DNA of 64,000 bases from an uncultured bacterium (GCA_963848965.1 CAWKFG010000004.1:96001-160000); one strand, 5' to 3'; counted from the stretch's first letter, positions 1-51,296 are shown. A program made the numbers and translations. The notes: generated by a model not told the origin, from the sequence alone.

Positions 1-2916
1 ATATTAGTTTATCAAACAAGCCCACACTCTCTTAAGAAAGTTGAAGAATATCTCAAGGGAAATACGATTGGAGAGTCACTACAAAAAGCTCGTGATCTTT
101 TAAAAGTTATAAGGTTTTTTGGAATAAGCAAAGATACTTTTGATGTTCTCTTACAAGCATGCGCGAAGACAACTAACTGTGAACCTAATGAGCTTTTTTA
201 CTCCCGAGAAGATCTTTATAAAGAGGCTACAGAGGAAAATTTAAAGTCATTATCCTTAAGCTCTTCTCCTCAAGCTACAGAAGAAAACAGCACTTGGATA
301 CGTAATGAGCTTAATACTCAGCTCAATCTTTCACCACTTGCTCGGCGCAAGATAGCCTTTACTATGGCATTACAGCACGAAAATCAAGATCCTACAACAA
401 GCCTTTCTTATATTATTGATCAAAAGTCATGGCAAGATCTAGAACTACTGTGCGGACCAAAGTCAAATCCACATTTCTGCTTTGCCAGCGCCGTTGATCG
501 TACATCAACAGAGATAGGCAAAGCACTCTTGTATACTAGGCTTTTACAACCGCTTACTACTATTCAAGAGCTTAAAAAAAGACAATCTATTGTTCAAGAA
601 CTACTTAAGCCATCGATATTTCAAGAACTGGATGCCCTTTTTGCACAGTTTTTTAAAGAGCCAAAACATGAAAATAATGTTCTATCTTTTCTCAACGGTG
701 CTGACTTTTTCAAAAATGAATTAAGCTATAATGAAATACAAATTCCTTTCTTTGCTAAATTCTCTCAGTGGTTTAATACCAATGAGATTACAGGCTTTTG
801 GAGCGCTTCTGATAAACTTATTTATAAAATTAGTAATACACTCCTACAGGGGAAGACAAAAACATATGAATTTTGCCTCAATGGTTTAGAGTATTTCTCG
901 ATAATCAAAAATAATAGGCCTCGTATAGATGAAACTATAGAATTCATTAAGTGTTGCTTTAAGTTCTTTATACCCAAGCTCGTTAACGCAACTTCTGAGA
1001 AGTCCTCTAAGCAGGCCTCTGATATGGTTTCTAAATATATAGTAAATGAAAAAATATCCTTAGGGATACCATTTACTAAGTACAAGCTACCTCAAGAGCC
1101 TTCATTCACATCTCCTATTTTTGGTGCTACACTCGGCTGGGCTTATAGCTCTTTTTTAGGAGCGCCGCACATGCTCACGGAAAGCATAATAACAACCTCA
1201 GTAATGCACGTTGTAACACACTTGCTCTATAGTGCGATGAGTGATAATAATTACAGTAGAGCAATTCAAGGATTAGCAGAGGCAAGCATATGCCTCCAGG
1301 AAAAGCTTATACTACTTTCAAAATATGTTAAATTTATCAAAGAGCTTCATACTTTTCTGAAAAATAAGTCACCAAAGCTTTTAGAGCTTATTCCTTCTTT
1401 ACAAGCTTTAGATCTAGGACAAGAAACTCCTCGTCAAAATGTATTCTCTTATTTCTGGCATTTTCCTACAGATATTACCAAGCAGTACATCTTTACAGAC
1501 GCAACGTCTTTCGAGCAGTTCATAAGTAAGCTCTGTAGTGCAACTTTTGATGAGCAAGGTAATATTTTTTCAAGGTATCATATTGGTCGTGTTATCGCAG
1601 TTTATCGCCTTGTAGATCTTCATAAAGAAAGACTTTCTGCCACTGCCACAGCACTTGCAGAACTTGACGCATATCTTTCAGTTGCACGATTGTATAATGA
1701 ATCGCAAGATAAACCAAATAAATATAGCTTTGTTAATTATGATACGTCAGAAACACCTGTTATTGATCTTAAAAACTTTTGGAATCCTTGTGTTGGATAT
1801 GATGCAGTAGCTAATACCTTAACTATGGGTATTGATAATCATCCAAAAGACCTTATAATTACAGGGCCAAATACCGGTGGTAAATCAACACTTATGAGGG
1901 CTCTTGTTTCTGCTATTTTAATGGGCCAATCATTAGGCATAGTTCCTGCACAAGAAGGATCACACATAACATTATTCTCAAATATACGCGCATATCTTAA
2001 TATAACTGATGATTCGTCGCTAGGTCTTTCTTTATTCTGGGCAAGTGCTAGGCGAGCTAAAGAGCTTTTAGAGGCAGCACAAAGACCAACAGGCCATTCA
2101 CTTACACTTTTTGATGAGATATATAATGGAACTGCTCCGAAAATAGGCGAATCTTTAGCCTATGGCACCCTTCTATTTATGACCGATAGCAATCATTGTC
2201 CTCGAAATATATGTATAACTACGACTCACTATCCTTTTGTACAACAATTACGAGAAGAGATAGATACCAAATGTGCTTATTATAGAATAAGCGATAAAGA
2301 AGATTCTGAAAATCGCTATAAACTTTTACCAGGTATTTATACAGAGTCCAACGGCCTTACTATTGCTCAAGAAGTAGGACTTAACGATGAAATTAGTAGA
2401 AACTCAAAACACTACTGTGAGCAAAAATACAAAAATAGTAATCTTAATTGCTTATTTAAGCCAGAAGCTCTCTTAAATACCTGTAAGGAAGAAGGGTTCA
2501 TATTCCTTATGAAACTTATAAAACAGAGCGAAATGAGAGCTTGGCTTCACGAGTTACTTTTAACAGCACCTTATGGCTATCATTTAGTAGAGCTAGCAAT
2601 AAAGCATGCAGTTAATCTCAAGTCATTCCTCAATCTTACAGATGATAAAGGCAGAACAGTACTTCATCGCGCAGCTATAAGAGATGCTAAAAACGGTGCA
2701 CTTATAAGCTTTCTTATCAAACAGGGAGCAAGCCTATGGATGTACGATGCTAAAGGCAAAAGGCCGCGAGACTACGCTTTACCGGACACTGTTGTCTGGA
2801 AGATATTAGTAGATGCAGAAAATACTCAAGGAACATATTTTGAGCAGCTACCTCAAGCATTAAGAGATAGACTCCAGAACTACATTACATATAATAAGAG
2901 AGCTGACGCTTTGTAA
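1..2916 (+). CDS. Divergent MutS-family (domain III/V) ATPase with C-terminal ankyrin repeat; 5' end lies outside the window
   Basis: Frame is open from base 1 through the ATG at 364. Walker A IITGPNTGGKST, Walker B LFDEIYNGT and TTHY motifs; ankyrin-like DDKGRTVLHRAA...GKRPRDYA near the C-terminus. Confidence 0.8.
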   Translation: MLVYQTSPHSLKKVEEYLKGNTIGESLQKARDLLKVIRFFGISKDTFDVLLQACAKTTNCEPNELFYSREDLYKEATEENLKSLSLSSSPQATEENSTWIRNELNTQLNLSPLARRKIAFTMALQHENQDPTTSLSYIIDQKSWQDLELLCGPKSNPHFCFASAVDRTSTEIGKALLYTRLLQPLTTIQELKKRQSIVQELLKPSIFQELDALFAQFFKEPKHENNVLSFLNGADFFKNELSYNEIQIPFFAKFSQWFNTNEITGFWSASDKLIYKISNTLLQGKTKTYEFCLNGLEYFSIIKNNRPRIDETIEFIKCCFKFFIPKLVNATSEKSSKQASDMVSKYIVNEKISLGIPFTKYKLPQEPSFTSPIFGATLGWAYSSFLGAPHMLTESIITTSVMHVVTHLLYSAMSDNNYSRAIQGLAEASICLQEKLILLSKYVKFIKELHTFLKNKSPKLLELIPSLQALDLGQETPRQNVFSYFWHFPTDITKQYIFTDATSFEQFISKLCSATFDEQGNIFSRYHIGRVIAVYRLVDLHKERLSATATALAELDAYLSVARLYNESQDKPNKYSFVNYDTSETPVIDLKNFWNPCVGYDAVANTLTMGIDNHPKDLIITGPNTGGKSTLMRALVSAILMGQSLGIVPAQEGSHITLFSNIRAYLNITDDSSLGLSLFWASARRAKELLEAAQRPTGHSLTLFDEIYNGTAPKIGESLAYGTLLFMTDSNHCPRNICITTTHYPFVQQLREEIDTKCAYYRISDKEDSENRYKLLPGIYTESNGLTIAQEVGLNDEISRNSKHYCEQKYKNSNLNCLFKPEALLNTCKEEGFIFLMKLIKQSEMRAWLHELLLTAPYGYHLVELAIKHAVNLKSFLNLTDDKGRTVLHRAAIRDAKNGALISFLIKQGASLWMYDAKGKRPRDYALPDTVVWKILVDAENTQGTYFEQLPQALRDRLQNYITYNKRADAL

Positions 2917-7836: not shown

Positions 7837-7865
7837 TACTTACCTTTCACTTACTATATTTACTA

Positions 7866-35026: not shown

Positions 35027-35100
35027 TTTTTGATCTCCTTCTTTTTATCAAAAAGTTTACACTGCTTTAGTCTGATTTTAAAGTGTGACGTCTATATTAT

Positions 35101-35125
35101 AAAGCCGGGGGGTGTCCCCGGCTTT
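35101..35125 (-). terminator. Terminator
   Basis: AAAGCCGGGG...CCCCGGCTTT stem. Confidence 0.65.
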
Positions 35126-35210
35126 AAGTATATAAAAATTCCAGTTACTTAATTTTGACCATAAGGTCAATTGATAAATTGCTCTTATAAGTCTTTCTAA
35201 TATCCTACTA

Positions 35211-35921
35211 TCAAAGCCCATGAAATTTCTTAATAGGACAATTAGCGCTGTGCCCAACTATTGGAAATGGTCCAGGTTCAGAAGGATTTTCTTTTGATAG
35301 TGAGCATTGTGGACAGTAATTATCTTTATCTTGTTGATTACTAGAATATTTATAGTTTCTCATTTCGGCAGCTTTGTATTTTTGCTCTTGGTTTCTTACT
35401 AGTTGCCGTTCTCTTTGTCTCCGTTCTTCTTTAACTTTTCGTAAAACTTTTTCCTTTTCTGCTTGTAACTCTTTAGACTTTCTATCACGTTCTAAAGATA
35501 ATTCATATGCTGCTTCTGGAGACTTTAATCCGTGCTTTAACCTATAGGCCGCTTCTTTTTGTGCTACAAAGAGTTTATAAGCTTTACTTGTACAAGGATC
35601 CCACTCCTCTTCGTCCTCTTGAGCAAAGAGTCCCTTTCTCGCTCTATATTCTTCAAGTGTCTCTTTCCTTAACCCACGTCTTTGTCTATACTCTTCCGGG
35701 GTCTCTTTCCGATGTCCTTCATCTTTTAATTCATTTTGAGCAGAGAGTCCCTTTCTCGCTCTATATTCTTCAGGTGTCTCCTTCCTTAACCCACGTCTTT
35801 GTCTATACTCTTCCGGGGTCTCTTTCCGGCGTCCTTCATCTTTTTCCATCGCTATTGAATGCTGAAAAATTGCGAAAGAAGATACTAAGCTAAAAATAAA
35901 AGCCATTCTTAAAAAATACAT
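35211..35921 (-). CDS. Secreted charged repeat protein (ETPEEYR units) with C-terminal CPQC...H...C
   Basis: Signal peptide ending SIA|MEK; four KET(P/L)EEYR units. Confidence 0.75.
   Translation of the reverse strand: MYFLRMAFIFSLVSSFAIFQHSIAMEKDEGRRKETPEEYRQRRGLRKETPEEYRARKGLSAQNELKDEGHRKETPEEYRQRRGLRKETLEEYRARKGLFAQEDEEEWDPCTSKAYKLFVAQKEAAYRLKHGLKSPEAAYELSLERDRKSKELQAEKEKVLRKVKEERRQRERQLVRNQEQKYKAAEMRNYKYSSNQQDKDNYCPQCSLSKENPSEPGPFPIVGHSANCPIKKFHGL
35619..35844. repeat. 117-bp-period near-identical duplication within the CDS
   Basis: Copies begin TTGAGCA at 35619 and 35736; 39-aa period. Confidence 0.9.
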
Positions 35922-36136
35922 AATTATCACCTGTTAGTAATATAAGTTTACTGCATAATGAATATTATCAAACTTTTTAAAGCTCAAAACTTTCTCCTCT
36001 TTAGAAAAAGTACTAACTTATCCCATTCTTCTATGCCTATCATCACCAACTCCTTTCAGCAAAGTACCTCCTGGTCAAAAACACATTTACTATTTTACAT
36101 AAAAAAAATATTGGCCTAAGCCAGACACTACAAATT

Positions 36137-37898: not shown

Positions 37899-40829
37899 TT
37901 AACCTACTAGAGTATTCCAAGGAATAATTGGCTCAACTGTTTGATAATCATCAAACAATGGCGATTTACTTTCAATACCAAAGTAGAGTGGTAAAGTAAT
38001 GTTTTCAAGAAGTCGGAGAGCTGCACTAAAGTCTTCTCTATGACCTTTGCGAACAACGATTTCACTACGAATATCCTTAAAGATCATCTCTAATGTAGCA
38101 ATTGCACGGATCCACAAACGAACTAAAGGAATTTGTTCTGGCTTTAGTTCAGTAAGCTTATTTTGTGCTTGTGTAGCCATTTCTTGCTTGATCTTTGGCA
38201 TAAGATTATTTACAGTAATCTGCCTATAAAGCTCTGTTGTCGACATAGCCCACAGTGGTTTGCCACCTTGGATACAGCGTTGTTTGTACTGAGCTACAAG
38301 CATTGTTACAATATTCTTTGGGCTTTTAAAGGGTGCAAACCCATAGGCATAAATACCAAAGAATGTTCCTGGATTTTCCCAATCAAGGCAATGTGGATAC
38401 TTAGCAAAGAGGCCCCACCTACGTTGCTTCATAGGTAGATTAACAATATTGAACTTCATTGGCGGCTTTATATCACCTAAAGAAGCTGGATCTATAAGCG
38501 GTAATCGTCTTTGTAATGCAAACATATACCCCTGTAGATCAATCTTGAGTACTAAAGGAGGAACAAACTGTTCAAGCTGCTCCATCTTATAGCCATCATC
38601 TGTAACAGTAAGTGATAAAAGCTGCGAAAGAAGAGCATACCACTGAGCACGTACTCCTTGCGTTATATCCTTGAGCATATTCGGCTCACGACAATCTCTA
38701 TGTACAAGGTACTTTATTTCAGCATCTACACCAGTTTCCAATGTTATCTGAGGCTGTACTTTACCTCCAGGACCAACAAGCGGTTTAAATGCTCCTTCCA
38801 TACCTTCCCACAGCGTAGTAAAATATGGAATTGTAATAAGCTTAGTAAAGAGAGATGAAAGGACTGTACTAAACTGTGCTACAGAATCTGCAGAGAAGCG
38901 CACAATAGCCTCATATATTCTATCTAAGCCATAATTTTCATAGTAAATTGTTTTTTCTGGCTCTAACCGCTCTCTACTTTCAGCAGAAAGCAAAGAAGAA
39001 TGCTGTTGTAATGTTTTAAGCGTTCTTTCTCGCACTTTTTCTTCAAGATCTTTACCTCGCAATGAGGTAAGTGCTCCAGCACCCTTATCTTCTAAAAGCT
39101 CATATAAGCTCCATCGTAATGCTGTTTCTAAAGTAAGCATAGCAATAGTTGATTCTAGGCGAGTATTAAGCAAATGACAGATTTCCTGCTCTCTATGAAT
39201 ACGATGCTGATAAAAGCTATCCTTTATTGCATAGGTATCACCAAAAAGCTTTTTAAGATATTGGAGCACAAAGTTAACACGAATATTTTCACGAGAAGAA
39301 CGTGGATACATACTTAAAAAGTCTATAAACACCACACGTTTAACATCAGCGTCATGCAACTTCTTTTTAAGGTCATCTAAAAATGCATCATAGTGCATAG
39401 GAAGTGAAAGGCCATTACTAAAGAGCATCTGCTCTGGCTCTACCACTTTTAACCCCATTGAATGAGCACCAGCCAACGTTACCAATATTCGAAGCTGCTC
39501 TGGTCGATTTTGATTAAATAAGTAATATCGCTCTTTATATTGAAATGGGATCCAAACAACCTGCTTTACGTCCATCGTATTGCAATTAAGAACGTATTGT
39601 CGTAAAGGATCTGCATCTTCATAAAGTGCTTTATTTTCTTGCGTTACCTCAGCACTTAGCTTATTAAATTGAGTTATAAGCTCATCTTTATTAAGTGCCA
39701 CATAGCGATTAAGCTGATTTTTTATTATAGGAGTAATGTCTTTAGCTGTCTGAATATCAACAAATACAAAGCCATCAGGTTTAATAGTAAAGTGGCTTAT
39801 TTGTGCAGGCAGATCAACAAGAAACACTTTATCTTTCAGTTGATATACTTCTGCTTGCTGCGATGATGAATTATCACAACGATCATATTTTTCAAAGTGA
39901 TCTTTGTATTTACCCCAATTTTTTATATTATTAAGCAGTGTACTTTTACCAACGCCATCTACAAAGCTACAGAAAATATAAGCAGTATTTTGGTCTTCAA
40001 GAGGATGTACTTCTTGCTGTAATACCTTAATAAACTCTTGAGCATTGGCTGTTGCTTTTGCCTTTTGGCAACCCAAAACTTCAATAGGATAAGTAATATC
40101 TGGTCCTACAAAAATTTTCATTAAAGGAGTTACACCCTCTTTTAATGCTCGAGCATAATCAATAGAAAAGAGCATATCTTGAGTACCTACTATCTCCTGT
40201 GATCCTGTAGTTGAAGCACGCTTATACATAGTAGACCAAAATTCAATAAGTTCTCCAAGAACGCCCTTAAAATTTTTCTTGTGTAATGCACGCTCTATAA
40301 ACTCTCGTGATTCAAGCAAGGTATCAAAATCTTTACCAAACGCATGTTTTTGAAATAATGTTGCTTTATCGTCAAAAAGAGCAATAGGCCGTGCGAGAAT
40401 ATGACTTACATACGAACGTTTAGTATCTTTGTACCAATAGCGTTCAAGCCACTCTGCATCTTTGAGTAAGAATCCTGTCATATAACCAAAGATATTACGA
40501 GTAGGCTGAGAAAGACCTGCAGTCGTTTTTACAATAACTTCATCTTCAAGAGCTTCTCTTGTCCAGCTTGTTGTATATGGTGTAATCGCATCTTCTTGGT
40601 ATCCAATAATGATCATACGGCCGTCAACCGAAAACTGTGCATCTCGCAGCGACTTTTCTAATTCAAGAAAACTGTCACGAGTTTTTTTCAAGATAAAAGG
40701 ATGATATTCATGTGTATATCTACCAGAAAGGTCATAACTTGAAATAAAGCTTTGATGAAACGTATCCGTAGAAGCTCCCACAAGAGATATCACATATAAA
40801 ACTGTTAGTATACATAATTTTTTATACAT
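37899..40829 (-). CDS. Large secreted hypothetical protein with a P-loop-like motif
   Basis: Signal MYKKLC...; FVDGVGKSTLLN and VDLPAQ. Confidence 0.7.
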   Translation of the reverse strand: MYKKLCILTVLYVISLVGASTDTFHQSFISSYDLSGRYTHEYHPFILKKTRDSFLELEKSLRDAQFSVDGRMIIIGYQEDAITPYTTSWTREALEDEVIVKTTAGLSQPTRNIFGYMTGFLLKDAEWLERYWYKDTKRSYVSHILARPIALFDDKATLFQKHAFGKDFDTLLESREFIERALHKKNFKGVLGELIEFWSTMYKRASTTGSQEIVGTQDMLFSIDYARALKEGVTPLMKIFVGPDITYPIEVLGCQKAKATANAQEFIKVLQQEVHPLEDQNTAYIFCSFVDGVGKSTLLNNIKNWGKYKDHFEKYDRCDNSSSQQAEVYQLKDKVFLVDLPAQISHFTIKPDGFVFVDIQTAKDITPIIKNQLNRYVALNKDELITQFNKLSAEVTQENKALYEDADPLRQYVLNCNTMDVKQVVWIPFQYKERYYLFNQNRPEQLRILVTLAGAHSMGLKVVEPEQMLFSNGLSLPMHYDAFLDDLKKKLHDADVKRVVFIDFLSMYPRSSRENIRVNFVLQYLKKLFGDTYAIKDSFYQHRIHREQEICHLLNTRLESTIAMLTLETALRWSLYELLEDKGAGALTSLRGKDLEEKVRERTLKTLQQHSSLLSAESRERLEPEKTIYYENYGLDRIYEAIVRFSADSVAQFSTVLSSLFTKLITIPYFTTLWEGMEGAFKPLVGPGGKVQPQITLETGVDAEIKYLVHRDCREPNMLKDITQGVRAQWYALLSQLLSLTVTDDGYKMEQLEQFVPPLVLKIDLQGYMFALQRRLPLIDPASLGDIKPPMKFNIVNLPMKQRRWGLFAKYPHCLDWENPGTFFGIYAYGFAPFKSPKNIVTMLVAQYKQRCIQGGKPLWAMSTTELYRQITVNNLMPKIKQEMATQAQNKLTELKPEQIPLVRLWIRAIATLEMIFKDIRSEIVVRKGHREDFSAALRLLENITLPLYFGIESKSPLFDDYQTVEPIIPWNTLVG

Positions 40830-41685
40830 AGAGCTCTCCCAGCACATACATAAGCCGTTCTTGCTCTAAAAGGTCGAGTACTTCTTGGTATTTTTTTACC
40901 GTAAGCTGATATGAAGCAAGGAGCCTCTCCGTTTTAATCTTAGTTATATGGTAATTAATTTTTTCTAAGCACTTTTTTGCAACCTGTAAGCTTTGATTAT
41001 AACCAGCACTATCATTAATCATTTGATAGGCACTATCTACAGCTTTACAGAAACCATAACTTAAACAATCGACAAAGAAAGCGTAGAATTGCAAAAACAT
41101 GGAATCGGAATTCTCTTTTAGAGCACTTCCCATAAGGTCCCAATACTGCATGATAGGCAATACTCGTTCTGGAACTTTTGCAGCTTCCTCTTTATAGAGG
41201 AGCTCATTAGTACTTACATCAATATACGTCTGATTGAGCCAGCTATCAAAATATTGACATTGCCAAAGAAACTTAATCCAATAGTCTTCCTCGTAAAAAT
41301 CCTCTTCTTTATCACAGAAGTAGAACCAGCGCCGTTCTGGCTTGGTAAAGATATCCATAACCTCTTTCCAGGCTATAGTAAACTCGTCAACTGGAAGCTC
41401 CATAAACTCCTGTGTTATCCAAGGAGCATTAAGCTTATAGTTCCCTAGCATGCGTAAAAAAGAGTCTATACGACTTACTGGTTGCTTTTTTTGAGGTACT
41501 ACAGAAGAGCTACCCTCTGTTGCTTGAGAAGTCTTTTCGTATTTTTCCAGTTCTTCAAAGAGTGAATCAAAAGACCATGAGCTATCTTCTACAGTATCTT
41601 TTGGGCTTTCTGGTATTTCACTGCCAGCATAGGCAAGAAAGCCTATGCTGGCTATAAAACTTATGAATAGTTTTATCCTAAACAT
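40822..41685 (-). CDS. Secreted hypothetical protein
   Basis: 287-aa ORF with signal peptide; overlaps both neighbours. Confidence 0.7.
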   Translation of the reverse strand: MFRIKLFISFIASIGFLAYAGSEIPESPKDTVEDSSWSFDSLFEELEKYEKTSQATEGSSSVVPQKKQPVSRIDSFLRMLGNYKLNAPWITQEFMELPVDEFTIAWKEVMDIFTKPERRWFYFCDKEEDFYEEDYWIKFLWQCQYFDSWLNQTYIDVSTNELLYKEEAAKVPERVLPIMQYWDLMGSALKENSDSMFLQFYAFFVDCLSYGFCKAVDSAYQMINDSAGYNQSLQVAKKCLEKINYHITKIKTERLLASYQLTVKKYQEVLDLLEQERLMYVLGELYV

Positions 41686-42827
41686 TACATTCCTAAGATA
41701 ACAGCAAGCGGCGAATTACGCAGCACTCCTATGAGCTCTTTGCCTATCATCTTCTTGATCTTTTCTTTGTCTTCGCTGATATTTTCTGGTTTTACCAATA
41801 AGCGAAGTCTCTTGAATGTACGAGTTGGTTCAACATCTTCATAACCAGCTGCTCTTTGTACAAACTCAAATTCTTCAAGAGCACTAATAAGACCAAAAAG
41901 AGTACCCTTAATAAGTATACTAAGAGCAAGAGCTTTAGTACTGTATTCTGCTTGATTGTGTTCTGTTTCTACAAATTCGTTAACACGCTTAGAAAGATAT
42001 CCAATAGAGTTACGGAGTTTATTTTGGATACTTTCTGAAGTTTGGATCTCTAAAGCACCTGTCAGTGGTATCTGTGTTGTAACATAGTGCATGAACCCAA
42101 GAGTTTGTTCTATATCTCTCACTAAAGCATTTACCTTTAATGCAATTTCTTCTTTAGAAGCAGCCATATTAACACCCTCTTTTTTATCTTGAGCTATCCA
42201 CTCAATAAGAAGGCCAAATGTTCGATAAAGATTAATCTTTTTACCTACAAACCAGGTAATCGTATGAGGAAGGAAAAGGTAGTCACTTACCTTCATACCA
42301 GCAGGAGTAAGATATCTAAAGAAAGGCATTCCTGAATAGCTTAAAAGAACATTTGCCATAAAGCCAGGTAAGATGTGTCCCATAGCACCTTTAGTAGAGC
42401 CTAAAAGGCTTACTACTCCGCTTGGAATACCACATACCTTATTCCATGCACTTTTAGGCCAGCGCTGGTACCACGGATCTTGCATCTCTGGCGCTTCAAC
42501 AGGCTTTGCAGCTTCTTTCTGACCTGCTTTAAGTTCATCAAATTGCCGTTTAAGCTCATTAAGTTCTGCTGCAAGCTTCTCCTGCGAAGGAGGCAGCTTT
42601 TTTGGATCATCTTGGTAATACCATTTATACCCTAAATATCCAGCAGTTCCTAAAACTGCACCAAGAGTAAGCCACCGTACTTTAGTGCGTAGCTTATCTT
42701 GAACTTCAAGCTCACTTATAGTAGCATTGATCATTTCATCAGAGATAGGTGCTACTTTATCAAGAGCGCTTGCATAACGAGCGCTTATTCCTAGTAATAA
42801 AACTAATGATATACTATGCCTTTTCAT
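41685..42827 (-). CDS. Hypothetical membrane/secreted protein
   Basis: 380-aa ORF with signal peptide, TM segment and coiled coil; GGAGG RBS. Confidence 0.7.
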   Translation of the reverse strand: MKRHSISLVLLLGISARYASALDKVAPISDEMINATISELEVQDKLRTKVRWLTLGAVLGTAGYLGYKWYYQDDPKKLPPSQEKLAAELNELKRQFDELKAGQKEAAKPVEAPEMQDPWYQRWPKSAWNKVCGIPSGVVSLLGSTKGAMGHILPGFMANVLLSYSGMPFFRYLTPAGMKVSDYLFLPHTITWFVGKKINLYRTFGLLIEWIAQDKKEGVNMAASKEEIALKVNALVRDIEQTLGFMHYVTTQIPLTGALEIQTSESIQNKLRNSIGYLSKRVNEFVETEHNQAEYSTKALALSILIKGTLFGLISALEEFEFVQRAAGYEDVEPTRTFKRLRLLVKPENISEDKEKIKKMIGKELIGVLRNSPLAVILGM

Positions 42828-42846
42828 AAAACCTCCACTTCACATA

Positions 42847-43809
42847 TCAAAGTTGTAATGATGGACCAGTGCCAAGAAGATCTGCTAATTGACTCATTCC
42901 TCCTGCTGATGATCCACTCTGCATTGTCGGCTTAGTAAACGTTAGCTTATTCATTCTTGAAACGTTTTCACCTTCAAGTAACAATGCTACTTGTTCAAAA
43001 GAATTACATGTCCAACCAAGCCAACGATTAATATATTCACTTCTTTGTTCAACGTCTTCGAAGGAATTCACACTTCTAATCAGCTCAATAAGCTTTTCCA
43101 GATAACATACGGTACGTTCAATATAGAAACATACTTCTATATTATCATGTGGTGCAAAAGCATGTAACATTCTACCTAGTTGAAATCTTAAACTAAAGTA
43201 AGATGCATCTTCATAAGATTTATCATAAGATCCAGTAGAACGCTTTAAAAACTCAATAGCATGGTAGAGTTCTTTAATTAGCTCGAGTTGAACTACTTGC
43301 CAATTGTTCTCAGTAAGTTCCGTAACTTGTAAACCTGTTTGACCCATATCTACAAGCTCTGCTCTTCTTTTCTTATCTCTAGTACCAGCAGAAACTTTAG
43401 TAAATGGCAAACAAAAAGTACATATACGATTATTGATTTTTGCTAAACTATTCCAACCCAAGCCTGCAGAACCAAATGCCATTCTATAAAGATAAGCACC
43501 TAGAAGTGTACTAAGGTGCTTTATATTTGCAGGAATCAGTCCTAAAAAAACAGAAGTTGTCTGATTTGTATTATTAATTACCGACTGCAATGAACCCTCA
43601 ATAATCGATTCTTGAAGCCGCTTTAGCAAAGGACCATCTTTAGGAGCAGAAGTAGGAATCGTAAAAACTTGCTGATATGATTGGCCTGCTTGATTACCGC
43701 CTGCAGTCCCGCCTGCTATTACAGCTTTTGTTATGGCTAGAATACACAACACAGCTAGTAAGCTAAACTTAAAAGGTGCCCTTTTTTCTACAAAAATATT
43801 AACCTTCAT
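42847..43809 (-). CDS. Hypothetical secreted protein
   Basis: 320-aa ORF, first gene of a four-gene operon. Confidence 0.7.
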   Translation of the reverse strand: MKVNIFVEKRAPFKFSLLAVLCILAITKAVIAGGTAGGNQAGQSYQQVFTIPTSAPKDGPLLKRLQESIIEGSLQSVINNTNQTTSVFLGLIPANIKHLSTLLGAYLYRMAFGSAGLGWNSLAKINNRICTFCLPFTKVSAGTRDKKRRAELVDMGQTGLQVTELTENNWQVVQLELIKELYHAIEFLKRSTGSYDKSYEDASYFSLRFQLGRMLHAFAPHDNIEVCFYIERTVCYLEKLIELIRSVNSFEDVEQRSEYINRWLGWTCNSFEQVALLLEGENVSRMNKLTFTKPTMQSGSSAGGMSQLADLLGTGPSLQL

Positions 43810-43997: not shown

Positions 43998-46900
43998 TTA
44001 CATAAGAAGACACCAACTCTTTGAATTTTTTTCAACTTGGGTTTTAGAATTAATCTCAGCTTGCATTGAAGCAATAAGCTCTGGCGTTAGTTTAAGAAAA
44101 TTAATTTTAAGAAACCCTAAAGCATTATAGAAATCTTCTTCCCTCAAGATTTTATCTCTTGAATTAGCAAAGATTAATGCATGATTACAAACTTCTATAA
44201 TATCGTCAAAGGATAGAACATAGACATATTTTTCTACTAATGCCTCTCCTTCATCGTATAGAGAATATGTTCTAGCATCTCGTAAGTGCTGAACCTTTAT
44301 CAGTATATTATCTGCACTACACCTTTCTCTATAATCAGGAAGATTTCGTAAACGTGCATTTTCTTCCATCGTTTCTGCTCTTATCAAGGACATAGCCTCC
44401 TGACTCAAAATCCTTTTTTTACCTAGAATCTCTGCACTAAGCTTATTAAAAAAATCATTTGAAACAGCTACTGCTCTTCCACGTGTATAAGCAAGCAATA
44501 GATTTCGAACAGCTACAGGTTTGCGCTGCAACTCTATTTTTTTACATTCGGGGTTATCTTTAATATATGCTAACGCTCTTGTCCCAATCATATCCTCTTT
44601 GCTTATACTACTTCTCCCACTTGCTACAGCGTATTTAAAGGCATCTTTAACCACTGTAGAAATAAAAGATTTAGTACAGTTATCAAAAAAGTAAGTTGCC
44701 AGCTCTTTAATAGCTTCCTCGTTAAGAGAATGCGTCTTTTTGTTCAAACAATGCTGTACAATTGCCCATCCATAGGGTTTATCAATAGTCAAATTAGTAA
44801 TTTTCATACATAAAGCAATGTCCAAATCCCCATAAAGTAGGCCTCTGTTTTGTTTTTGGGCAATTCTGCAGCCTCTAGCCACAATTTTTTCTAGTATTGA
44901 AGCATTAAGCCCTTCAGTCCTATTAGATAATACAGTTAATATTGCATCATTTACCTCCCAACCCTTTTTTACCAAATAATGTCCAAACAAAATTTTACGC
45001 AGGGCTACATCTGGTAGTGTTTTAGGATTCATCGAATGTATAGCGATAAGAAAATGATCTAATGCGATTTGTCTTTGTTCATTTCCACTTTTAGCTAAAT
45101 CTAATGCTTTTTTAACCATCTCTTCTATTTGCCTTCCTGTAAGACCTGCAGTTTCAGCAGCAAGACGTCTATAGGTCGCATCATCAATATTAGTTTTACC
45201 TGCAGCGAAATGGCGCAACATTATCTCTCGTTGTGGTTGCTGCGGTACACGCTCATCATGGAAGTACAAAGCACTATACATATCTTGTTCCGTTACGACA
45301 AGTTTTTCTTGATCTCGGGCATCTGCTAAAGCTATAGCTTTTAATACAACCTTTTCTAGTTTCCGCCCAGAAAGCCCTTCTGTTGCATCAGCAAGTCTAT
45401 TTAAAAGAGCTTCTTCTAGCACAATACCATTTTTACGAGCATGAAGAGCAAAAATTTGTTGACGTTCCTCTCTTGTAGGCAGATCTATTTTAATAGTGTA
45501 GTCATCAAGCCTATCAAGAATAGTAGGATCCATGTTCTCTAAATGATTAGTAGCGCCTATAAAGAATATGTTAGGATTCTTTTTATCAAGCTCGGCTTGT
45601 AGGGCTATACGAGCTTCTTCATATGAACGAGCGTTAGCATTACCTGCATCAGCCTTTCCTGTAATTAAATCTATTTCGTCTATAAAAACGATAACTGACT
45701 TTTGTGCTCTTGCTGCTTGAGCAAATACGTCTTTAATAGTTTGAGCACCAGAACCTTGGTATTTTGTTACTATCTCAGAAGCAAAGATCATAAACAACTC
45801 ACATTTAGTAGAGCCTGCTATAGCTTTACCAAGCATACTTTTACCTGTTCCTTGAGGGCCATATAAAAGCATACCCAAGCGCCTGTTATGTGCTCGCGGA
45901 TTATTAAGTGCTTGAACGGTTCTTACTATTTCCTGAGGTACACCTATAAGCTCCTCAAGAGTAATAGTTGGTATACCTACGCTATAGTTAATTGACCCAT
46001 TATCAGAGCCCTGAGACATAAATGCCTTAAAGATATCTTTAAGTTTTGGCATAGATTCTTGAGAATGCTTAGGTTCTTCTTGCTTTGTTTTTTCTTGCGA
46101 TTGTTGATCTTTAGTTTCTGATTTTGTAGATGCATTCTGTGAAGATGGTTCTGCTTTTTTAGGTCCTGCAGATCGGTTCTGTGGCCGAGGCTGCTCTATT
46201 GGATCTTCTCCATTGAGTACTCGTATAACATTTCGAGCATGAAGATCATTGATACGAGGAGTATGAGAAGAATCAGCAAAAACATATTGTATTTTATTAC
46301 GTTGCTTTTTAATAACACAGGTAAACCAATGAGGAAAACCTGATTGATGAATAATTAAAACAGCAGTAAATGAACTGAATGGACTTTTCATATCTTGAGC
46401 AAGCGATTGCAGTTCACTATTCATTTCAAACTGATTTTGTAATGGATTTTCAAAAGGGTCTTCAATATAGAATACTTCTTTAAATGGTATATAAGTGTTA
46501 TCAAAAAGTTCTTGTATTAATTCACTGTTACGCTCTTTTTCAAGTACATAAAGTGCTTTAATTTCTTCAGTTTCAAGCCATTGACCGAATCCTCCAATTC
46601 CCCCGCCTCTTACTTTACCCTTTCCTCCACTATAAGTATGACGATATATAATTTCCTGACGTGCAGAGAGAATAATGTTGTCATCTTGAATTGAGAAAGA
46701 AAGTTGCGCGAAATGAGGCAGATAGCTCATAATTCTAGCAGTATTTTGCAATGCTTGATATGCAGCCTTATTATCATCTTCTTTTATAGTTTTAATAAAC
46801 CATTCTTGTGCTATACGAGCAACCGCTTCTAAAGAGATATCATAACGCAGCAAATCTCCTTGCCTTACACCTTGAGTAGCGGCTATACGCTGACTTACTG

Positions 46901-47510
46901 ATGAGAGTATTCCTTGCAATGCACGTCTTTCTTCTTCATTCTCTTGAGAGCCTGCAGCAAAAGGCTCAAAAGATACTTTCGTAGGTGCTAAGTTTAAATC
47001 ATATGTTCCTTGCTCTGCTACTCGAGCTCCCTTAATACTTTTTAATAAAACATCTCTTATATACCATGAAGCCAATTGTCTCGCACGAGCTTCAATGACA
47101 TGTGCTCGCCAAACGCTTATTTTATCACCAAACAATTCACTGACAGGAGTCTTTGATGTTAACAGTGCCTGAACTTCGTGTTTATTTTCTTCTTCTGCAG
47201 ATAAAAGACGAGCAATTATAAGACCATTTTTAAGTGCATGATAGCCACAACTAGCACTACCACCAAGCATTCCATCTTGATTGATAACCTCCAATTGCAT
47301 GTATTCATGCACTGGTTGTTGTGCTCCAAAATCTTCAAACAGTTCTGGCTTAAAGGTGCCTGATTGGCGCTTAGCATCTTGTGGCACATTGCTTTGTATA
47401 TCTACACGTTCTTGTTTTTGCTTTCTTCGAGAGCCCTTGCCCTTTTCCATACTAAAAAGCGTAAAAGACGTAAAAGATAGTAAAAAGAGCATAAAAAGAT
47501 TTCTATACAT
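43998..47510 (-). CDS. Secreted AAA+ ATPase with N-terminal Cys-His-Asp protease-like domain, repeated AAA lids and C-terminal CaaX
   Basis: GPQGTGKS, VFIDEID and GATNH; SCGYHALKN...HWFTC...FADSS; ends in CLLM. Confidence 0.85.
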   Translation of the reverse strand: MYRNLFMLFLLSFTSFTLFSMEKGKGSRRKQKQERVDIQSNVPQDAKRQSGTFKPELFEDFGAQQPVHEYMQLEVINQDGMLGGSASCGYHALKNGLIIARLLSAEEENKHEVQALLTSKTPVSELFGDKISVWRAHVIEARARQLASWYIRDVLLKSIKGARVAEQGTYDLNLAPTKVSFEPFAAGSQENEEERRALQGILSSVSQRIAATQGVRQGDLLRYDISLEAVARIAQEWFIKTIKEDDNKAAYQALQNTARIMSYLPHFAQLSFSIQDDNIILSARQEIIYRHTYSGGKGKVRGGGIGGFGQWLETEEIKALYVLEKERNSELIQELFDNTYIPFKEVFYIEDPFENPLQNQFEMNSELQSLAQDMKSPFSSFTAVLIIHQSGFPHWFTCVIKKQRNKIQYVFADSSHTPRINDLHARNVIRVLNGEDPIEQPRPQNRSAGPKKAEPSSQNASTKSETKDQQSQEKTKQEEPKHSQESMPKLKDIFKAFMSQGSDNGSINYSVGIPTITLEELIGVPQEIVRTVQALNNPRAHNRRLGMLLYGPQGTGKSMLGKAIAGSTKCELFMIFASEIVTKYQGSGAQTIKDVFAQAARAQKSVIVFIDEIDLITGKADAGNANARSYEEARIALQAELDKKNPNIFFIGATNHLENMDPTILDRLDDYTIKIDLPTREERQQIFALHARKNGIVLEEALLNRLADATEGLSGRKLEKVVLKAIALADARDQEKLVVTEQDMYSALYFHDERVPQQPQREIMLRHFAAGKTNIDDATYRRLAAETAGLTGRQIEEMVKKALDLAKSGNEQRQIALDHFLIAIHSMNPKTLPDVALRKILFGHYLVKKGWEVNDAILTVLSNRTEGLNASILEKIVARGCRIAQKQNRGLLYGDLDIALCMKITNLTIDKPYGWAIVQHCLNKKTHSLNEEAIKELATYFFDNCTKSFISTVVKDAFKYAVASGRSSISKEDMIGTRALAYIKDNPECKKIELQRKPVAVRNLLLAYTRGRAVAVSNDFFNKLSAEILGKKRILSQEAMSLIRAETMEENARLRNLPDYRERCSADNILIKVQHLRDARTYSLYDEGEALVEKYVYVLSFDDIIEVCNHALIFANSRDKILREEDFYNALGFLKINFLKLTPELIASMQAEINSKTQVEKNSKSWCLLM

Positions 47511-47733
47511 AACAATTCCCTTCAATTGTGACTAGCATAGTTTTTAATATTTTAACTTTACACTGCTTAATAATTACAGCTAAGTATAATTTAGTTCTTG
47601 CCCATGTCAACCTCTTTTTTCAATATGGGCCAATGTCCGTTACATCCAGAAACAATTAGCCACGCAGACACCCTCTTTTATTTTCCAATAAAAAACTTAA
47701 TTTGGGTGGTAGAATTTTTTTATAAAATGGTTA

Positions 47734-47825: not shown

Positions 47826-50800
47826 ATGAGTTTTTTAACTCGCTTACGTAAAAATAAGTCTATTTCTTGGACACTTTTTGTCTGTTTTACTCTTTCTCAT
47901 GTGCCTCTCATACGCCCAATGGCAGCGCCAGTTATCGCCCCTCATGCACAAGCAGCTCTTGCAGCATTTTTAGGCTGGGCATACAAACAAGCTGATCAGC
48001 AGAGAGATACTCAACGATTACTTAGTGATGTTGGTCTTGCTCATTTACAAGAAGACCTTGTCCTTGCAATTATTACAGGAGATATGCAGCAACTAGGCAC
48101 TTTATGTACTTCTTATCAAGAAAAACTTTCAGAATCATCGCACTCTTTCGATAGCGCAGCATTTGTTCAACATATAGAAAATCTTCAAAAACGAGCACCT
48201 TCCTATAGTACTATTTACAATCTTATTAACTCTGCAGCCCAGAGAAAATGGGCCACAGCTGAACAAGAAAAACCCCGTGTTCTTATACCTCCTTATGAAG
48301 ATACTCACGAGCAAAGTATTCCAACAGGAGGAACTATTAACCCTTCTTTTCCAGCTCCAAAACCGGGTATACCGCGACCTCCTCGTCCATTTATACCACC
48401 GGTTCATCCTAATGTAGGGACCTACGATAATCCACCAGATCCTGAAAATAAACTGCCTGAACCAGTTAAACCTCCTTTTAACCCAGATGCTCTACCAAAA
48501 AGTGGTTTTGTCTCAAACGTTTCTGGTTTGACTGCAGTAGGTATTGCTTTTTACGAGCTTATTGCAAGCTTTTACAAAGCCTCTACACGAGTGAAAGAGC
48601 AAAAGCATCTTGATGAACAAATAGATAAGGCCTTTGAAAGCAATACTGATATGCATGCTCTTTATAAAGAAGCAATGCATAGTGCTATTACTATAACGCT
48701 CAAAGCACACTGTCCTTATAGTACAAGCAGTGAACGCAATCATGCATTACTTGCTATGAACCATATTGGCATCATAGGAAGAGCAGGACGATATATAACA
48801 CAATTTATACAAACTCTGAATCCTTACTATTTTCATGAAGATGGATCACTCAAGCATACTCGTTCAAAAATTGATTATGAACATGCAGTAGACCGCCTTA
48901 TCCCTCTTATGAAAAAGATGGCAACAAACAAAGAAGAGTATCGTGAGTATCTTGCAGAATTAGAAACAGCATTTCATTTAGAAAGCCCTGAAGCTCGAAA
49001 AAAGTTTCCTAAAATTTATCAAAAGATTCAAAGAGCTTTTAAAAGCGGATGGGCACCCCATCAAGAAAGCGACTTTCTTAATACTTTATATGAAATGCTT
49101 CCAAAAGATGTTCAAAAATATGGTACTATTCATCCTTCTGTCATTCAAAATAATCCGCATAATAAAGCATTCATCTCATTCATTAATGACTGTAATTTTG
49201 ACATAACAGATCCTCAAGCAGATCCTCTTGCTCAAGCACAAAAAGCAAAAGAGTTTTATGAGAGCTATGGCAAACATCAAACACTTGAAGAAAAGCTTTC
49301 TTTTATTGCATCTAATCCGTCATACATAAAACAGTATCAGACTATGATGAGAAATTTCTTTCAAGAAATAGTCTCATCCACTTTTGACGGTAGAAATATA
49401 CCTTATGCTTTTGAAAACGATCCATATGCTTCTCAATTTTCTACAGCCGACATAAAAGACCATATTAAACAACTTGCTGTACGGTATCACTTTAAAAAAA
49501 ATATACAAGCACAATTTAGTCTTGAAGGATTCAATAACAAAGAGATAGAGCAGCTGCTCTATGCTTTTATAACACCCACAACTACGCGTAATTATACGGA
49601 ACTTCCTTCGTCTAAAGCTATTATAGATCACCTTGTAGATGGCTCAACTGCAAAAAGAAATGCTATTGGCCAGACGCTCTTTAACCAATTCTTTACAACA
49701 GAAGGAATATTACGCTCTTTAGAAGAAAAAGCGCACGAGTATCCAGAACTTGCACAACTCAATGCCCTTACTCAGAAAAATAAAGATGTCTTACGTTATA
49801 CAAACTATTTCCTTGCTCTTGATAGCACGCCAGAGACAAAAAAGCATATAGCACAGGGCATTGGCTACCTTGCAGCAGCCTCTCGAGATACACACGCTGC
49901 ATCCGATTATTTACGTCTTGCACGAGCACATTATGCTGCTCTTACAAATACAAAAGGATGCGCCGATCTCCTTGAGTGTGGCAACTTTGCACAACTTTAT
50001 AAAAATGCTCACCAAAATGGCGTACAAAACCTTATTCGCAAAGTAGCTCTCGAAGGTCTTACATTACAAGAAAAAAGTTCTGCCTATACATCACAAGAAG
50101 AGCAACACAGGCATGCAATACTTTCACGCTATGCTCTTAAAACTGCTCATATAGCACATCAACTAAATGCACGAGGAAAAAGTGAAGATGCAAGAACAAT
50201 GGCACTTAATGTTCTTGAACTGCTTAAGGATCCTCAGCACTCTACACAATCATTTGAAGTACTCGTTGATATTATTAACAAAGTAAGCAGTATGCCTGGA
50301 GCATTTGATCCTGCTTCATTAATATGTACAGCATTAAGAAGAGATCTTGATGAATGTAAACCTGATCTTATTAAAAAGGCACATACTGAAACAAAAAAAT
50401 TTGAAGAAGCCCTTCAAGCAGATAGTAAAAAAATAAATCCAGGTAACCAAAGAATTCTTCATGAAAAGTTAAAAGCAGCTGCAACACAAGCACAGAAGGT
50501 ACTTGATCGAGTAGCACGCTATCCTGATCCACAAGGTATGTGTGCTGCTGTGAATGCAGATCTGTTAAGAAGACTAAGCCAAGAAGCACATGCACGTAAT
50601 GTTGCTGGTCATACAAAAGAGGCTATTAAGCTCTTTAATGACTTTGCTCCTGGACTCATTGAAGAGTGTGAAGCTTATGACAAAAATAAGCAAGATAAAC
50701 CACAAGATACCAGTCCTATAAAAGCGCCTCAACCAGCATCTCCTAAAGGTACCTGTCAAGCAGAAGTACCAAAAACGCCTGCTCCAACATGCGGTACAAG

Positions 50801-51296
50801 TACTCGACCAGCAGAAAAAGCACCATCATGCGGCACAGGAGCTCAAGAACATAAAGAGCCTAAACCACGACCATGTGGTGCTGGCCAACAAGTAGCCCCG
50901 AGTTTCGGACCTTCAGAAGATGAAGTTATCGGAAAGGCCATAGAAAAATTATTTGAACTGATTGAAAAAGAAAAGAGCCAGCAACCTGTTCCACAACAAC
51001 CTCAAAATGAAGAAGCTCCTTCAGTATCAGCTCCTTCAAAAGAACAAGATAGTACTCAAGAAAAAGAGCCAGAGCACGCACAGAATGTACCAAGTAAAGT
51101 AATACCAGCAGTTTTACCAGTTCCAACAACTACGCCTGCTTTACCAGTAAATACAACTGCTCCGATTTCAATTACGCCTATACCGGTAGCTCCCCAAACG
51201 TCTACTGTCTTGCCATCTTCAAACCACACTAACTTCAGTACAACCACATCTCCTTTCCAGCAAGTAGTACTGGAAATATTGCATTACAACCTGTAA
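47826..51296 (+). CDS. Large secreted Pro-rich protein; probable N-terminal part of a polymorphic toxin
   Basis: 1156-aa ORF with signal-like N-terminus; coding-like sequence continues across frameshifts into an EndoU domain. Confidence 0.7.
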   Translation: MSFLTRLRKNKSISWTLFVCFTLSHVPLIRPMAAPVIAPHAQAALAAFLGWAYKQADQQRDTQRLLSDVGLAHLQEDLVLAIITGDMQQLGTLCTSYQEKLSESSHSFDSAAFVQHIENLQKRAPSYSTIYNLINSAAQRKWATAEQEKPRVLIPPYEDTHEQSIPTGGTINPSFPAPKPGIPRPPRPFIPPVHPNVGTYDNPPDPENKLPEPVKPPFNPDALPKSGFVSNVSGLTAVGIAFYELIASFYKASTRVKEQKHLDEQIDKAFESNTDMHALYKEAMHSAITITLKAHCPYSTSSERNHALLAMNHIGIIGRAGRYITQFIQTLNPYYFHEDGSLKHTRSKIDYEHAVDRLIPLMKKMATNKEEYREYLAELETAFHLESPEARKKFPKIYQKIQRAFKSGWAPHQESDFLNTLYEMLPKDVQKYGTIHPSVIQNNPHNKAFISFINDCNFDITDPQADPLAQAQKAKEFYESYGKHQTLEEKLSFIASNPSYIKQYQTMMRNFFQEIVSSTFDGRNIPYAFENDPYASQFSTADIKDHIKQLAVRYHFKKNIQAQFSLEGFNNKEIEQLLYAFITPTTTRNYTELPSSKAIIDHLVDGSTAKRNAIGQTLFNQFFTTEGILRSLEEKAHEYPELAQLNALTQKNKDVLRYTNYFLALDSTPETKKHIAQGIGYLAAASRDTHAASDYLRLARAHYAALTNTKGCADLLECGNFAQLYKNAHQNGVQNLIRKVALEGLTLQEKSSAYTSQEEQHRHAILSRYALKTAHIAHQLNARGKSEDARTMALNVLELLKDPQHSTQSFEVLVDIINKVSSMPGAFDPASLICTALRRDLDECKPDLIKKAHTETKKFEEALQADSKKINPGNQRILHEKLKAAATQAQKVLDRVARYPDPQGMCAAVNADLLRRLSQEAHARNVAGHTKEAIKLFNDFAPGLIEECEAYDKNKQDKPQDTSPIKAPQPASPKGTCQAEVPKTPAPTCGTSTRPAEKAPSCGTGAQEHKEPKPRPCGAGQQVAPSFGPSEDEVIGKAIEKLFELIEKEKSQQPVPQQPQNEEAPSVSAPSKEQDSTQEKEPEHAQNVPSKVIPAVLPVPTTTPALPVNTTAPISITPIPVAPQTSTVLPSSNHTNFSTTTSPFQQVVLEILHYNL

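Follow-up and report, generated by a model that had tools for sequence, protein, structure and literature searches.

A candidate effector joining a deubiquitinase-like cysteine protease domain to an AAA+ module with tandem lids and a CaaX tail in a Dependentiae-like bacterium

INTRODUCTION

What might a bacterium do with one polypeptide that begins with an export-type hydrophobic segment, continues with a protease-like domain and an AAA+ ATPase, and ends in a motif of the kind that eukaryotic cells prenylate? This question is raised by a single long open reading frame (ORF) in a 64,000-nucleotide stretch of DNA from an uncultured bacterium (GCA_963848965.1, CAWKFG010000004.1:96001-160000; the whole stretch is referred to here as the window). 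The ORF occupies positions 43998..47510 on the minus strand and encodes 1170 amino acids counted from its ATG. Deubiquitinase (DUB) effectors are one of the main routes by which intracellular bacteria escape host defense, and to our knowledge nearly all known examples come from Proteobacteria and Chlamydiae. The interpretation that we favor, with modest confidence, is that the ORF encodes an exported effector of an intracellular Dependentiae-like bacterium, in which a DUB-like protease related to the Ulp1/CE clan, with its catalytic residues in papain order, would be combined with an AAA+ motor and lipidated by the host.

RESULTS

Domain order of the predicted effector

The protein runs, in order, from a hydrophobic N terminus through a cysteine-protease-like domain and one AAA+ module to tandem lids and a terminal CLLM. 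All of the features listed by an earlier sequence-only reading of the locus, namely the hydrophobic start, the protease motifs, the AAA module, the repeats and CLLM, were found in the ORF. They are arranged as follows, together with the basis of each assignment (pLDDT, predicted local distance difference test score).

43998..47510, minus strand: coding sequence, 1170 codons plus a stop at 43998-44000 (ORF list, translation)
47448..47510, minus strand: hydrophobic export signal or anchor, residues 1-21, ending ...LFS-M-E (hydropathy, family starts)
47319..47447, minus strand: basic linker, predicted disordered, residues 22-64 (pLDDT 42-53 over residues 11-60; sequence)
46206..47318, minus strand: predicted papain-fold cysteine-protease domain, residues 65-435 (no Pfam hit; AlphaFold2; fold matches; family)
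47247..47279, minus strand: Q78 to C88, putative oxyanion Gln and nucleophile Cys, at the start of helix 84-104 (conservation; DSSP on the model)
46611..47093, minus strand: helical/beta insertion, residues ~140-300, between the Cys helix and the His strand (model secondary structure)
46272..46331, minus strand: H394-W395 to D413-S414, putative catalytic His, aromatic gatekeeper and Asp (strands 394-403 and 406-412; conservation)
45981..46205, minus strand: linker rich in Ser, Gln, Lys and Glu, residues 436-510 (sequence; no Pfam family of its own)
45486..45980, minus strand: AAA+ alpha/beta ATPase domain, residues 511-675 (Pfam AAA; closest solved sequences VAT and Cdc48/p97 D2)
45255..45485, minus strand: canonical AAA+ lid, unit 1, residues 676-752
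45027..45254, minus strand: lid copy 2, residues 753-828
44796..45026, minus strand: lid copy 3, residues 829-905
44538..44795, minus strand: lid-like unit 4, residues 906-991, weaker (iterated profile, four-helix pattern)
44112..44537, minus strand: possible fifth four-helix unit, residues 992-1133, split by a beta-hairpin and a disordered insert (model helix pattern only)
44001..44012, minus strand: CLLM, CaaX-type motif, residues 1167-1170 (sequence; family recurrence)

A conserved protease signature

Residues 1-450 matched no Pfam family (E<=0.1). The candidate catalytic motifs lie at residues 77-80 (NQDG), 87-95 (SCGYHALKN), 394-399 (HWFTCV) and 411-415 (FADSS), with D413 as the acidic residue; the Gln/Cys-His-Asp order read from the sequence alone (Q78, C88, H394-W395, D413) is thus present, and it is kept across the family. 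A full HMMER search of 1.84 billion representatives returned 136 family representatives at E<=0.001, and 38 of these remained at a limit of E<=1e-10. For the conservation counts, 138 sequences (the query, three orthologs and further representatives) were aligned to the profile, with 124 at the key columns. At position 88, 106 sequences carried Cys, 18 carried Ser and none carried any other residue. Gln was found at position 78 in 108 sequences, and position 89 was Gly in 114 and Ala in 10; Y90 was kept in 123 and N95 in all 124. The second half of the signature was similarly well conserved, with H394 in 116 and W395 in 122 (98%), Asp (112) or Asn (12) at position 413, and S414 in 118.

His and Asp/Asn were both kept in every Cys-bearing member aligned at the His and Asp columns (93/93), and among the 17 Ser variants covered at the His column, 8 had lost the His. 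By a crude regular expression, a Walker A motif was present in 14/18 Ser variants versus 12/106 Cys forms. Such co-variation of Cys/Ser with His would be expected if a catalytic Cys-His pair had decayed in a single branch of AAA-fused members. PMC7391069 reports a 477-fold enrichment, among DUBs and Gly-Gly-cleaving ubiquitin-like (UbL) proteases, of a His-aromatic motif kept in >90% of a family's members. Judged by its conservation, the His-Trp of the present family fits this "aromatic gatekeeper" criterion for Gly-Gly-cleaving proteases.

Fusion of this protease-like domain to an AAA module is recurrent: Pfam AAA was detected in 30 of the 133 representatives scanned, the other 103/133 being without an AAA module. 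One family member, P0132 (453 aa), carries a RanBP2-type zinc ribbon (E 5e-11) right after its signal. Such zinc ribbons are eukaryote-type modules that often bind ubiquitin, and its presence in P0132 points, though weakly, toward a DUB function. Tandem protease-like domains ahead of one AAA module also occur, with three such stretches in the ORF at G003:C1:410342-412858 (1920 residues) and four in P0009 (1915 aa); the genome containing the former (G003) has 12 matches to the protease-like domain.

Predicted fold of the protease-like domain

An AlphaFold2 model of the domain from a 29-sequence alignment had a mean pLDDT of 84.3 and a predicted template modeling score (pTM) of 0.79. In the model, helix 84-104 carries C88 in its first turn, H394 opens strand 394-403, and D413 directly follows strand 406-412. 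No match at E<=0.001 was obtained with Foldseek against the PDB using the protease domain. The partial matches with sensible geometry were CE-clan proteins, namely the CidB DUB domain (probability 0.75, root mean square deviation [rmsd] 3.9, 91 columns, 23% identity), RickCE and monkeypox I7L; the most probable partial match was the Legionella effector Lem17 bound to inositol hexakisphosphate (IP6) (probability 0.84, 95 columns). The insertion at residues ~140-300 was covered by few rows of the fold search, with no protease among them. Structural superposition gave the following scores.

BpJOS, 5.9 (rmsd 4.2, 142 residues, model 71..442)
ATG4A, 5.6; an OTU, 5.6; cytomegalovirus M48, 5.6
PaJOS, 5.5; PcJOS, 5.5; USP30, 5.3
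JOSD2, 5.0; ataxin-3, 4.8

CE enzymes superposed on the C-terminal part only (OtDUB, 5.0; XopD, 4.6 over 305..435; NopD, 4.5). All of these scores are in the middling range of the tool, and no protease family stands out structurally. The predicted fold is papain-like, and its closest neighbors in the model comparisons are almost all ubiquitin or UbL proteases. The papain-like fold and the DUB neighbors agree with the earlier expectation of a Josephin/papain fold, and the Josephin scores are comparable to those of other DUB folds.

Sequence affinity to the Ulp1/CE clan

The protease family is placed more clearly by sequence than by structure. A 74-member profile, built from family members without AAA domains, was compared with the PDB, and the sole significant match was the Ulp1-type DUB domain of Wolbachia CidB (E 2.4e-4). 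The alignment spans the strands bearing HW and DS, with HWFTCV...FADSS falling on the same motifs of CidB. In line with this, Peptidase_C48 (PF02902) was matched by 5/45 relatives at E<=1e-3, and four of these five exceeded the curated 20.7-bit cut-off (P0007, 21.0; P0014, 26.1; P0019, 28.6; P0024, 21.4). Among the 74 members at E<=1, Peptidase_C48 was matched in 7, ElaD/SseL-like_C in 2 and Josephin (PF02099; MEROPS C86) in 0. The label "Josephin-like" given to the domain earlier finds no support in these searches, the only significant sequence links being to the Ulp1/CE clan. Josephin chains were also absent at E<=10 when the family profile was compared with the PDB; in all of the Josephin searches, the HMMER filters may hide very weak matches.

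The C48 matches end by approximately profile position 157 of 217 and so fall short of the Gln-Cys part of that family. In the present family, a strand-Gln-loop-Cys-Gly-helix element is found instead at the N-terminal end of the domain, and the domain ends ~20 residues after D413 with no conserved Cys beyond it. The catalytic order is Gln-Cys...His...Asp, unlike the CE order His-Asp/Glu-Gln-Cys. PMC7391069 describes CE-clan proteases as having undergone a circular permutation of the papain fold, so the present family has the unpermuted order. The simplest reading is that the domain would represent an unnamed family, a Cys-before-His (papain-order) relative of the Ulp1/CE-clan proteases. It appears DUB- or ULP-like, yet it misses one defining feature of each candidate family: a profile match in the case of Josephin and the residue order in the case of the CE clan.

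Three further searches bear on this placement. Isolated Cys segments of 80-86 residues from the query and three paralogs had no Pfam match at E<=10. A search of 61 genomes belonging to the same order found no canonical Peptidase_C48 gene at E<=1e-5, but it drew a blank in the control genomes as well and is uninformative. Language-model neighbors included poxvirus core protease, C48 and ElaD clusters with scores of 0.77, which serve as leads only. A link to giant viruses, for which Atlas scores of 0.81-0.84 had likewise served as leads only, was rejected: no relative was found in viral contigs and there was no BFVD match at E<=0.001, the best being a Hokovirus protein at 2.2e-3.

An AAA+ module followed by repeated lids

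Pfam AAA (PF00004) matched residues 547-670 with an E value of 2.7e-27. Walker A (GPQGTGKS, residues 551-558) and Walker B (within VIVFIDEID, residues 606-614) are both intact, in agreement with the single AAA module noted from the sequence. The closest solved sequences are VAT and the D2 domains of Cdc48/p97 (E 4e-44 to 1e-41); the best NCBIfam models, those of the proteasome-activating nucleotidase and FtsH, were all matched far under the family cut-offs. A DUF815 match starts only at residue 512, after the linker of residues 436-510. The module is of the classic clade. KYQG, within TKYQGSG (residues 582-588), stands where we take pore loop 1 to be and keeps an aromatic residue and Gly. ILDRLDD (residues 664-670), presumably the second region of homology as judged by the Arg-Arg or Arg-x-x-Arg motif of classic AAA+ proteins, keeps one of the two usual arginines.

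Lid units 1 to 3 resemble one another clearly, with local-alignment z scores of 13.4 (units 1-2), 11.7 (units 1-3) and 8.3 (units 2-3) and none of 200 shuffles reaching any of these scores. Three lid units were present in all five full-length relatives. In two relatives, unit 4 was picked up by an iterated profile (3e-4 to 4e-4) before it had itself been included. No fifth unit was detected by sequence. An AlphaFold2 model of residues 676-1170 (6 sequences, pLDDT 76.9) comprised five successive four-helix units, then one helix and a disordered tail carrying CLLM. Solved AAA+ lids superposed on each of units 1-3, as listed below by model position, solved structure, score and rmsd; unit 4 was covered only within multi-lid alignments.

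Lid unit 1, 2..78: i-AAA protease, 12.6, 1.8
Lid unit 2, 70..156: ATAD1, 11.5, 2.3
Lid unit 3, 147..230: FtsH, 11.0, 1.8
Lid unit 3, 156..228: Vps4, 10.1, 1.6

Where four to five lid-like units had been proposed, three are thus firm and a fourth is probable, and the fifth is suggested only by how the helices are arranged in the model. A search with the C-terminal 421 residues found no relatives beyond the close orthologs P0002 and P0004. We know of no precedent for an AAA+ protein with three to five tandem lids, although no dedicated search was made.

The two termini

Residues 5-19 form the most hydrophobic 15-residue window of the protein (Kyte-Doolittle mean, 2.13), and a signal-like hydrophobic segment starts nearly all members of the protease family. 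The signal peptide proposed from the sequence is accordingly retained as a probable export signal or anchor. In the genome as a whole, a hydrophobic start followed by [SAGC]-M-[EDQ] was found in 183/1353 crude ORFs, with the consensus L-[YFL]-[AGS]-M-E; the [SAGC]-M-[EDQ] motif was found in 10/1119 ORFs in an internal control window. The Met-Glu dipeptide is ~20-fold enriched at ORF positions 17-21 (1.35% versus 0.067%). The [AGS]-M-E motif looks like either a signal-peptidase site that leaves a new Met-Glu N terminus or a second start codon; the gene call of the ortholog P0002 begins exactly at the Met of the Met-Glu motif.

At the other end, the protein terminates in CLLM as first described. 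Cys at position -4 occurs in 13/138 family proteins versus 1.66 expected (binomial P value, 1.7e-8), and the other positions from -1 to -12 have 0-3 Cys each. The tails are CLLM, CIIS, CTIV, CVIL, CVIA (twice), CTIS (twice), CNLI, CILF, CVIS, CWLV and CVLV; ortholog P0003 ends in CIIS and the contig-5 paralog in CNLF. The same excess is seen in the crude ORF set of the genome, in which 33/1353 ORFs have Cys at -4 versus 18.5 expected (Poisson P value, 0.0015; neighboring positions, 10-22), and CaaX tails are 2.9-fold enriched in carriers of a hydrophobic start with [SAGC]-M-[EDQ] (10/183 versus 23/1170; Fisher P value, 0.009). CaaX tails are prenylated by eukaryotes only, and a final Met directs farnesylation. 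Since prenylation is exclusive to eukaryotes, the recurrence of CaaX tails is the best evidence that proteins of this family meet the host cytosol, and it argues for a family that is probably exposed to host prenylation.

A host-associated source

The source genome measures 1.73 Mb in five contigs at ~36% G+C, and related genomes in the collection measure 0.5-1.9 Mb. MutS from the window is 51-55% identical to its counterparts in three Babeliales/Babelota/Dependentiae genomes versus 38-39% in two Parachlamydiales genomes. Also encoded in the window are an ankyrin-repeat protein of 1469 residues and numerous proteins that bear a signal but belong to no known family. Dependentiae are intracellular parasites of protists, and the MutS identities, the ankyrin protein and the signal-bearing proteins fit a Dependentiae-like, host-associated lineage. 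In a cultured Dependentiae parasite, signal peptides were reported on 44% of coding sequences, putative effectors among them (PMC6561590).

DISCUSSION

Collectively, these findings suggest a sequence of events that we put forward as slightly better than an even bet. The N-terminal signal would carry the protein out of the bacterial cytoplasm, and the protein would then arrive in the host cytosol. There the host would farnesylate CLLM at C1167, tethering the protein to a membrane. The membrane-bound protease, with Q78, C88, H394 and D413 as its putative catalytic residues and W395 as its Gly-Gly gatekeeper, would act as an isopeptidase and cleave off a modifier, either ubiquitin or a ubiquitin-like protein. 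The motor, a single AAA+ module that presumably works as a hexamer coupled to the protease, would thread or extract the modified substrate, and the tandem lid copies may act as a docking platform. The analysis itself demonstrates the domain order, the conserved protease signature, the class of fold, the intact ATP-binding motifs, the repeated lids and the recurrence of both the CaaX tail and the protease-AAA fusion. We infer each of the proposed steps, from export and host delivery to motor-protease coupling. What had been proposed from the sequence alone, a host-lipidated effector combining a DUB-like protease with an unfoldase-type ATPase, holds in this form as an inference once membership of the Josephin family is removed from it. 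A more ambitious version, which we hold only tentatively and consider doubtful, would make the protein a single-chain mimic of the p97-deubiquitinase pair, lipid anchored on a host membrane, where the AAA+ ring would pull out proteins tagged with ubiquitin or a UbL as the isopeptidase takes off the tag; its protease would found an unpermuted sister group of the Ulp1/CE clan, the family would belong to protist symbionts (Dependentiae and some Chlamydiae), and a lineage-specific signal would leave host-like Met-Glu N termini.

Several observations weigh against the exported effector. The query itself has no Pfam match to Peptidase_C48 or Josephin (whole protein, E<=1; residues 1-450, E<=0.1). 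A Sec-type signal leaves entry into the host cytosol unexplained, and the strongly basic stretch after the hydrophobic segment also fits a membrane anchor that keeps the remainder of the polypeptide within the bacterium. The CaaX tail is present in only 2/4 full-length orthologs including the query, P0002 and P0004 being without it. One arginine is kept in ILDRLDD, so the ATPase coupling may be weak. Finally, relatives within the CE clan may be acetyltransferases rather than hydrolases (PMC7391069).

This last point leads to a CE-clan-type acetyltransferase like YopJ or LegCE, in which the Cys-His pair would acetylate host proteins. The sequence affinity to the CE clan would suit such an enzyme as well, the aromatic motif fails to separate DUBs from acetyltransferases within that clan (for example, lpg1949; PMC7391069), and Lem17-IP6 was the most probable partial Foldseek match (0.84, 95 columns). 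However, no YopJ-type Pfam family (Peptidase_C55) was found among the matches of the members, and the CE proteins that were matched, of the Ulp1, SENP, CidB and poxvirus-protease types, are hydrolases; we consider acetylation improbable. Somewhat less improbable, though still unlikely in our judgment, is a true divergent Josephin acting like ataxin-3 or like the Josephin-type DUBs and clippases of bacteria. In its favor, Josephins share the residue order Gln-Cys...His-Trp...Asp/Asn-Ser, and they are documented in the bacteria Simkania, Parachlamydia and Burkholderia (bioRxiv 10.1101/2024.07.24.604956). It is the sequence searches that speak against this assignment, with 0/74 members at E<=1, no match of the query and no Josephin chain in the PDB at E<=10, and with significant links leading to Ulp1/CE instead.

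The protein might also never leave the bacterium and be an inner-membrane-anchored ATP-dependent protease or self-processing enzyme, with an AAA+ ring that feeds the protease and a CaaX-like end without function. AAA+ proteases such as FtsH combine an anchor, an AAA module and a protease, ATP is present in the bacterial cytoplasm, and the very basic stretch right behind the hydrophobic N terminus would suit a signal anchor whose C terminus stays inside. Yet FtsH and Lon differ in domain order from the protease-before-ATPase arrangement seen here, 103/133 scanned family members have no AAA module, the CaaX-like tails recur in the family (13/138; P value, 1.7e-8) and are enriched in the genome, and the conserved His-Trp points to Gly-Gly substrates. 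We give a resident enzyme about as little credence as the acetyltransferase. The least probable proposal by some distance, to be entertained only as an outside chance, is that the protease-like domain of the AAA-fused branch does not cleave and serves as a receptor that passes ubiquitin-type-tagged proteins to the motor. It draws on the Ser variants (18/124 members, 14/18 with Walker A), on the loss of His in 8/17 of those aligned at that column, and on a contig-1 paralog in which Ser and Arg occupy the Cys and His positions but the AAA module is retained. The query and three orthologs keep Gln, Cys, His and Asp intact, which confines the receptor argument to relatives and takes the window's own gene out of it.

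The exported, DUB-like effector can be compared with several known systems. With the Ulp1/SENP-type CE proteases (CidB, RickCE, XopD, SseL and ChlaDUB1) the domain shares, in sequence, the His-Trp strand, the Asp-Ser strand and the preceding helices, and in both a strand, Gln and a loop lead to Cys-Gly at a helix start. The order differs, being Cys, His, Asp here and His-Asp-Cys in CE proteases, and the Cys helix here lies ~300 residues before His. Eukaryotic Josephins and the bacterial ones (BpJOS, PaJOS, PcJOS and SnJOS1/2) have the same residue order and the His-Trp pair, but there is no detectable sequence relationship, and the present domain, at ~370 residues, is about twice as long because of its large insertion (~160 residues). 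Bacterial Josephins likewise occur in bacteria that live inside eukaryotic cells (10.1101/2024.07.24.604956). Both papain-fold residue orders have precedents among the effector DUBs of intracellular bacteria, as seen in EmcB/CoxDUB, a permuted OTU (PMC12501173), and in LupA relative to LotA (PMC10318531). EmcB/CoxDUB and LupA are OTU-related proteins of Legionellales with the Cys helix moved to the C-terminal side, whereas the CE-like core described here has its Cys helix on the N-terminal side.

The motor part recalls p97/Cdc48 with its DUB cofactors and the proteasomal Rpt ring with its DUBs, in that a classic-clade AAA+ unfoldase module is associated with a ubiquitin-protease-like part, the activity of which is predicted here. 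The p97 partners include ataxin-3 and Otu1. Unlike p97/Cdc48, the present protein would have both functions on one polypeptide, with a single ATPase domain and no p97-type N-domain, and extra lid copies and a lipidation motif follow its motor. The tail has a parallel in Legionella AnkB, a CaaX effector that is anchored to the vacuole by host farnesylation (PMC5506055). Both are bacterial proteins with eukaryote-directed domains and a C-terminal Cys-aliphatic-aliphatic-X; they differ in lineage and catalytic domains, and the present protein has a Sec-type signal instead of Dot/Icm.

In the literature searched, which excluded most subscription journals, we found no DUB described in Dependentiae and no effector fusing a DUB- or Ulp1-like domain to an AAA+ module. 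The protein would combine a DUB-type effector from an unnamed protease family with an unusual AAA+ architecture. If correct, this reading would add a DUB-type family without a Pfam model from an almost unstudied phylum, Dependentiae. The Ulp1-like core with papain-order catalytic residues would bear on the origin of the CE clan; its recurrent fusion to AAA+ (30/133 representatives) would amount to a built-in p97-DUB partnership; and an AAA+ protein with three to five tandem lids would be added to those known. The recurrent CaaX tails may offer a simple handle on which proteins of these bacteria enter the host cytosol.

Paralogs, start signals and neighboring genes

The effector gene and its divergently transcribed neighbor are duplicated as a pair. 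The neighbor in the window, at 47826-51296 (plus strand), encodes a 1156-residue signal-bearing protein without a Pfam family; the second pair is at locus L020, 871-5385 (minus strand) with 5688-8939 (plus strand). The contig-5 copy of the neighbor, a protein of 1504 residues, shares 40% identity with it across 373 residues (E 8e-79), and the contig-5 effector paralog is 90% identical in the protease domain and 44% identical over residues 676-1170. Two further paralogs are encoded in the same genome on contigs 1 and 4 (L003, 508-2742, minus strand; L004, 331-2112, minus strand). In the 744-residue paralog, Cys and His are replaced by Ser and Arg (NSGYHALKN, TRWF), the AAA module is kept and there is a hydrophobic C-terminal segment; the 593-residue paralog has no AAA module, has Cys, His and Asn, and ends in CxxC...CxxC.

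Two candidate signals precede the effector gene.

47517..47523, minus strand: ribosome-binding-site-like GAAGGGA, six bases ahead of the ATG (read from sequence)
47583..47610, minus strand: promoter-like TTGACA-16-TATACT, the best sigma-70-like site of the region, with 11/12 matches

Sigma-70-like sites number 14 in the region versus 12.7 in shuffles and are thus not above expectation, the promoter candidate being a consensus match alone. An alternative in-frame TTG start is open five codons upstream of the ATG.

Downstream of the effector on the same strand, four tightly packed genes (37899-43809, minus strand) encode proteins of 320, 380, 287 and 982 residues. Each of the four begins with a signal-like segment and is without a significant Pfam match, and the genes may constitute an operon for exported proteins. 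Elsewhere in the genome, an ORF of 128 residues (G000:C1:528245-528370; locus L021, 1381-1767, minus strand) scores 29.8 bits (cut-off, 25.4) over the first 41/72 positions of the Pfam ubiquitin model, and it is without a Gly-Gly end. In the window, UvrA at 56423-59000 (minus strand) is broken into two overlapping ORFs that cover residues 3-293 and 406-941 of the family model, an arrangement that could stem from a frameshift, from decay to a pseudogene or from misassembly. A group II intron reverse transcriptase/maturase is encoded at 32556-33857 (E 2e-105), and the stretch around it (32013-36000) has a higher G+C content (0.43) and a strongly negative AT skew.

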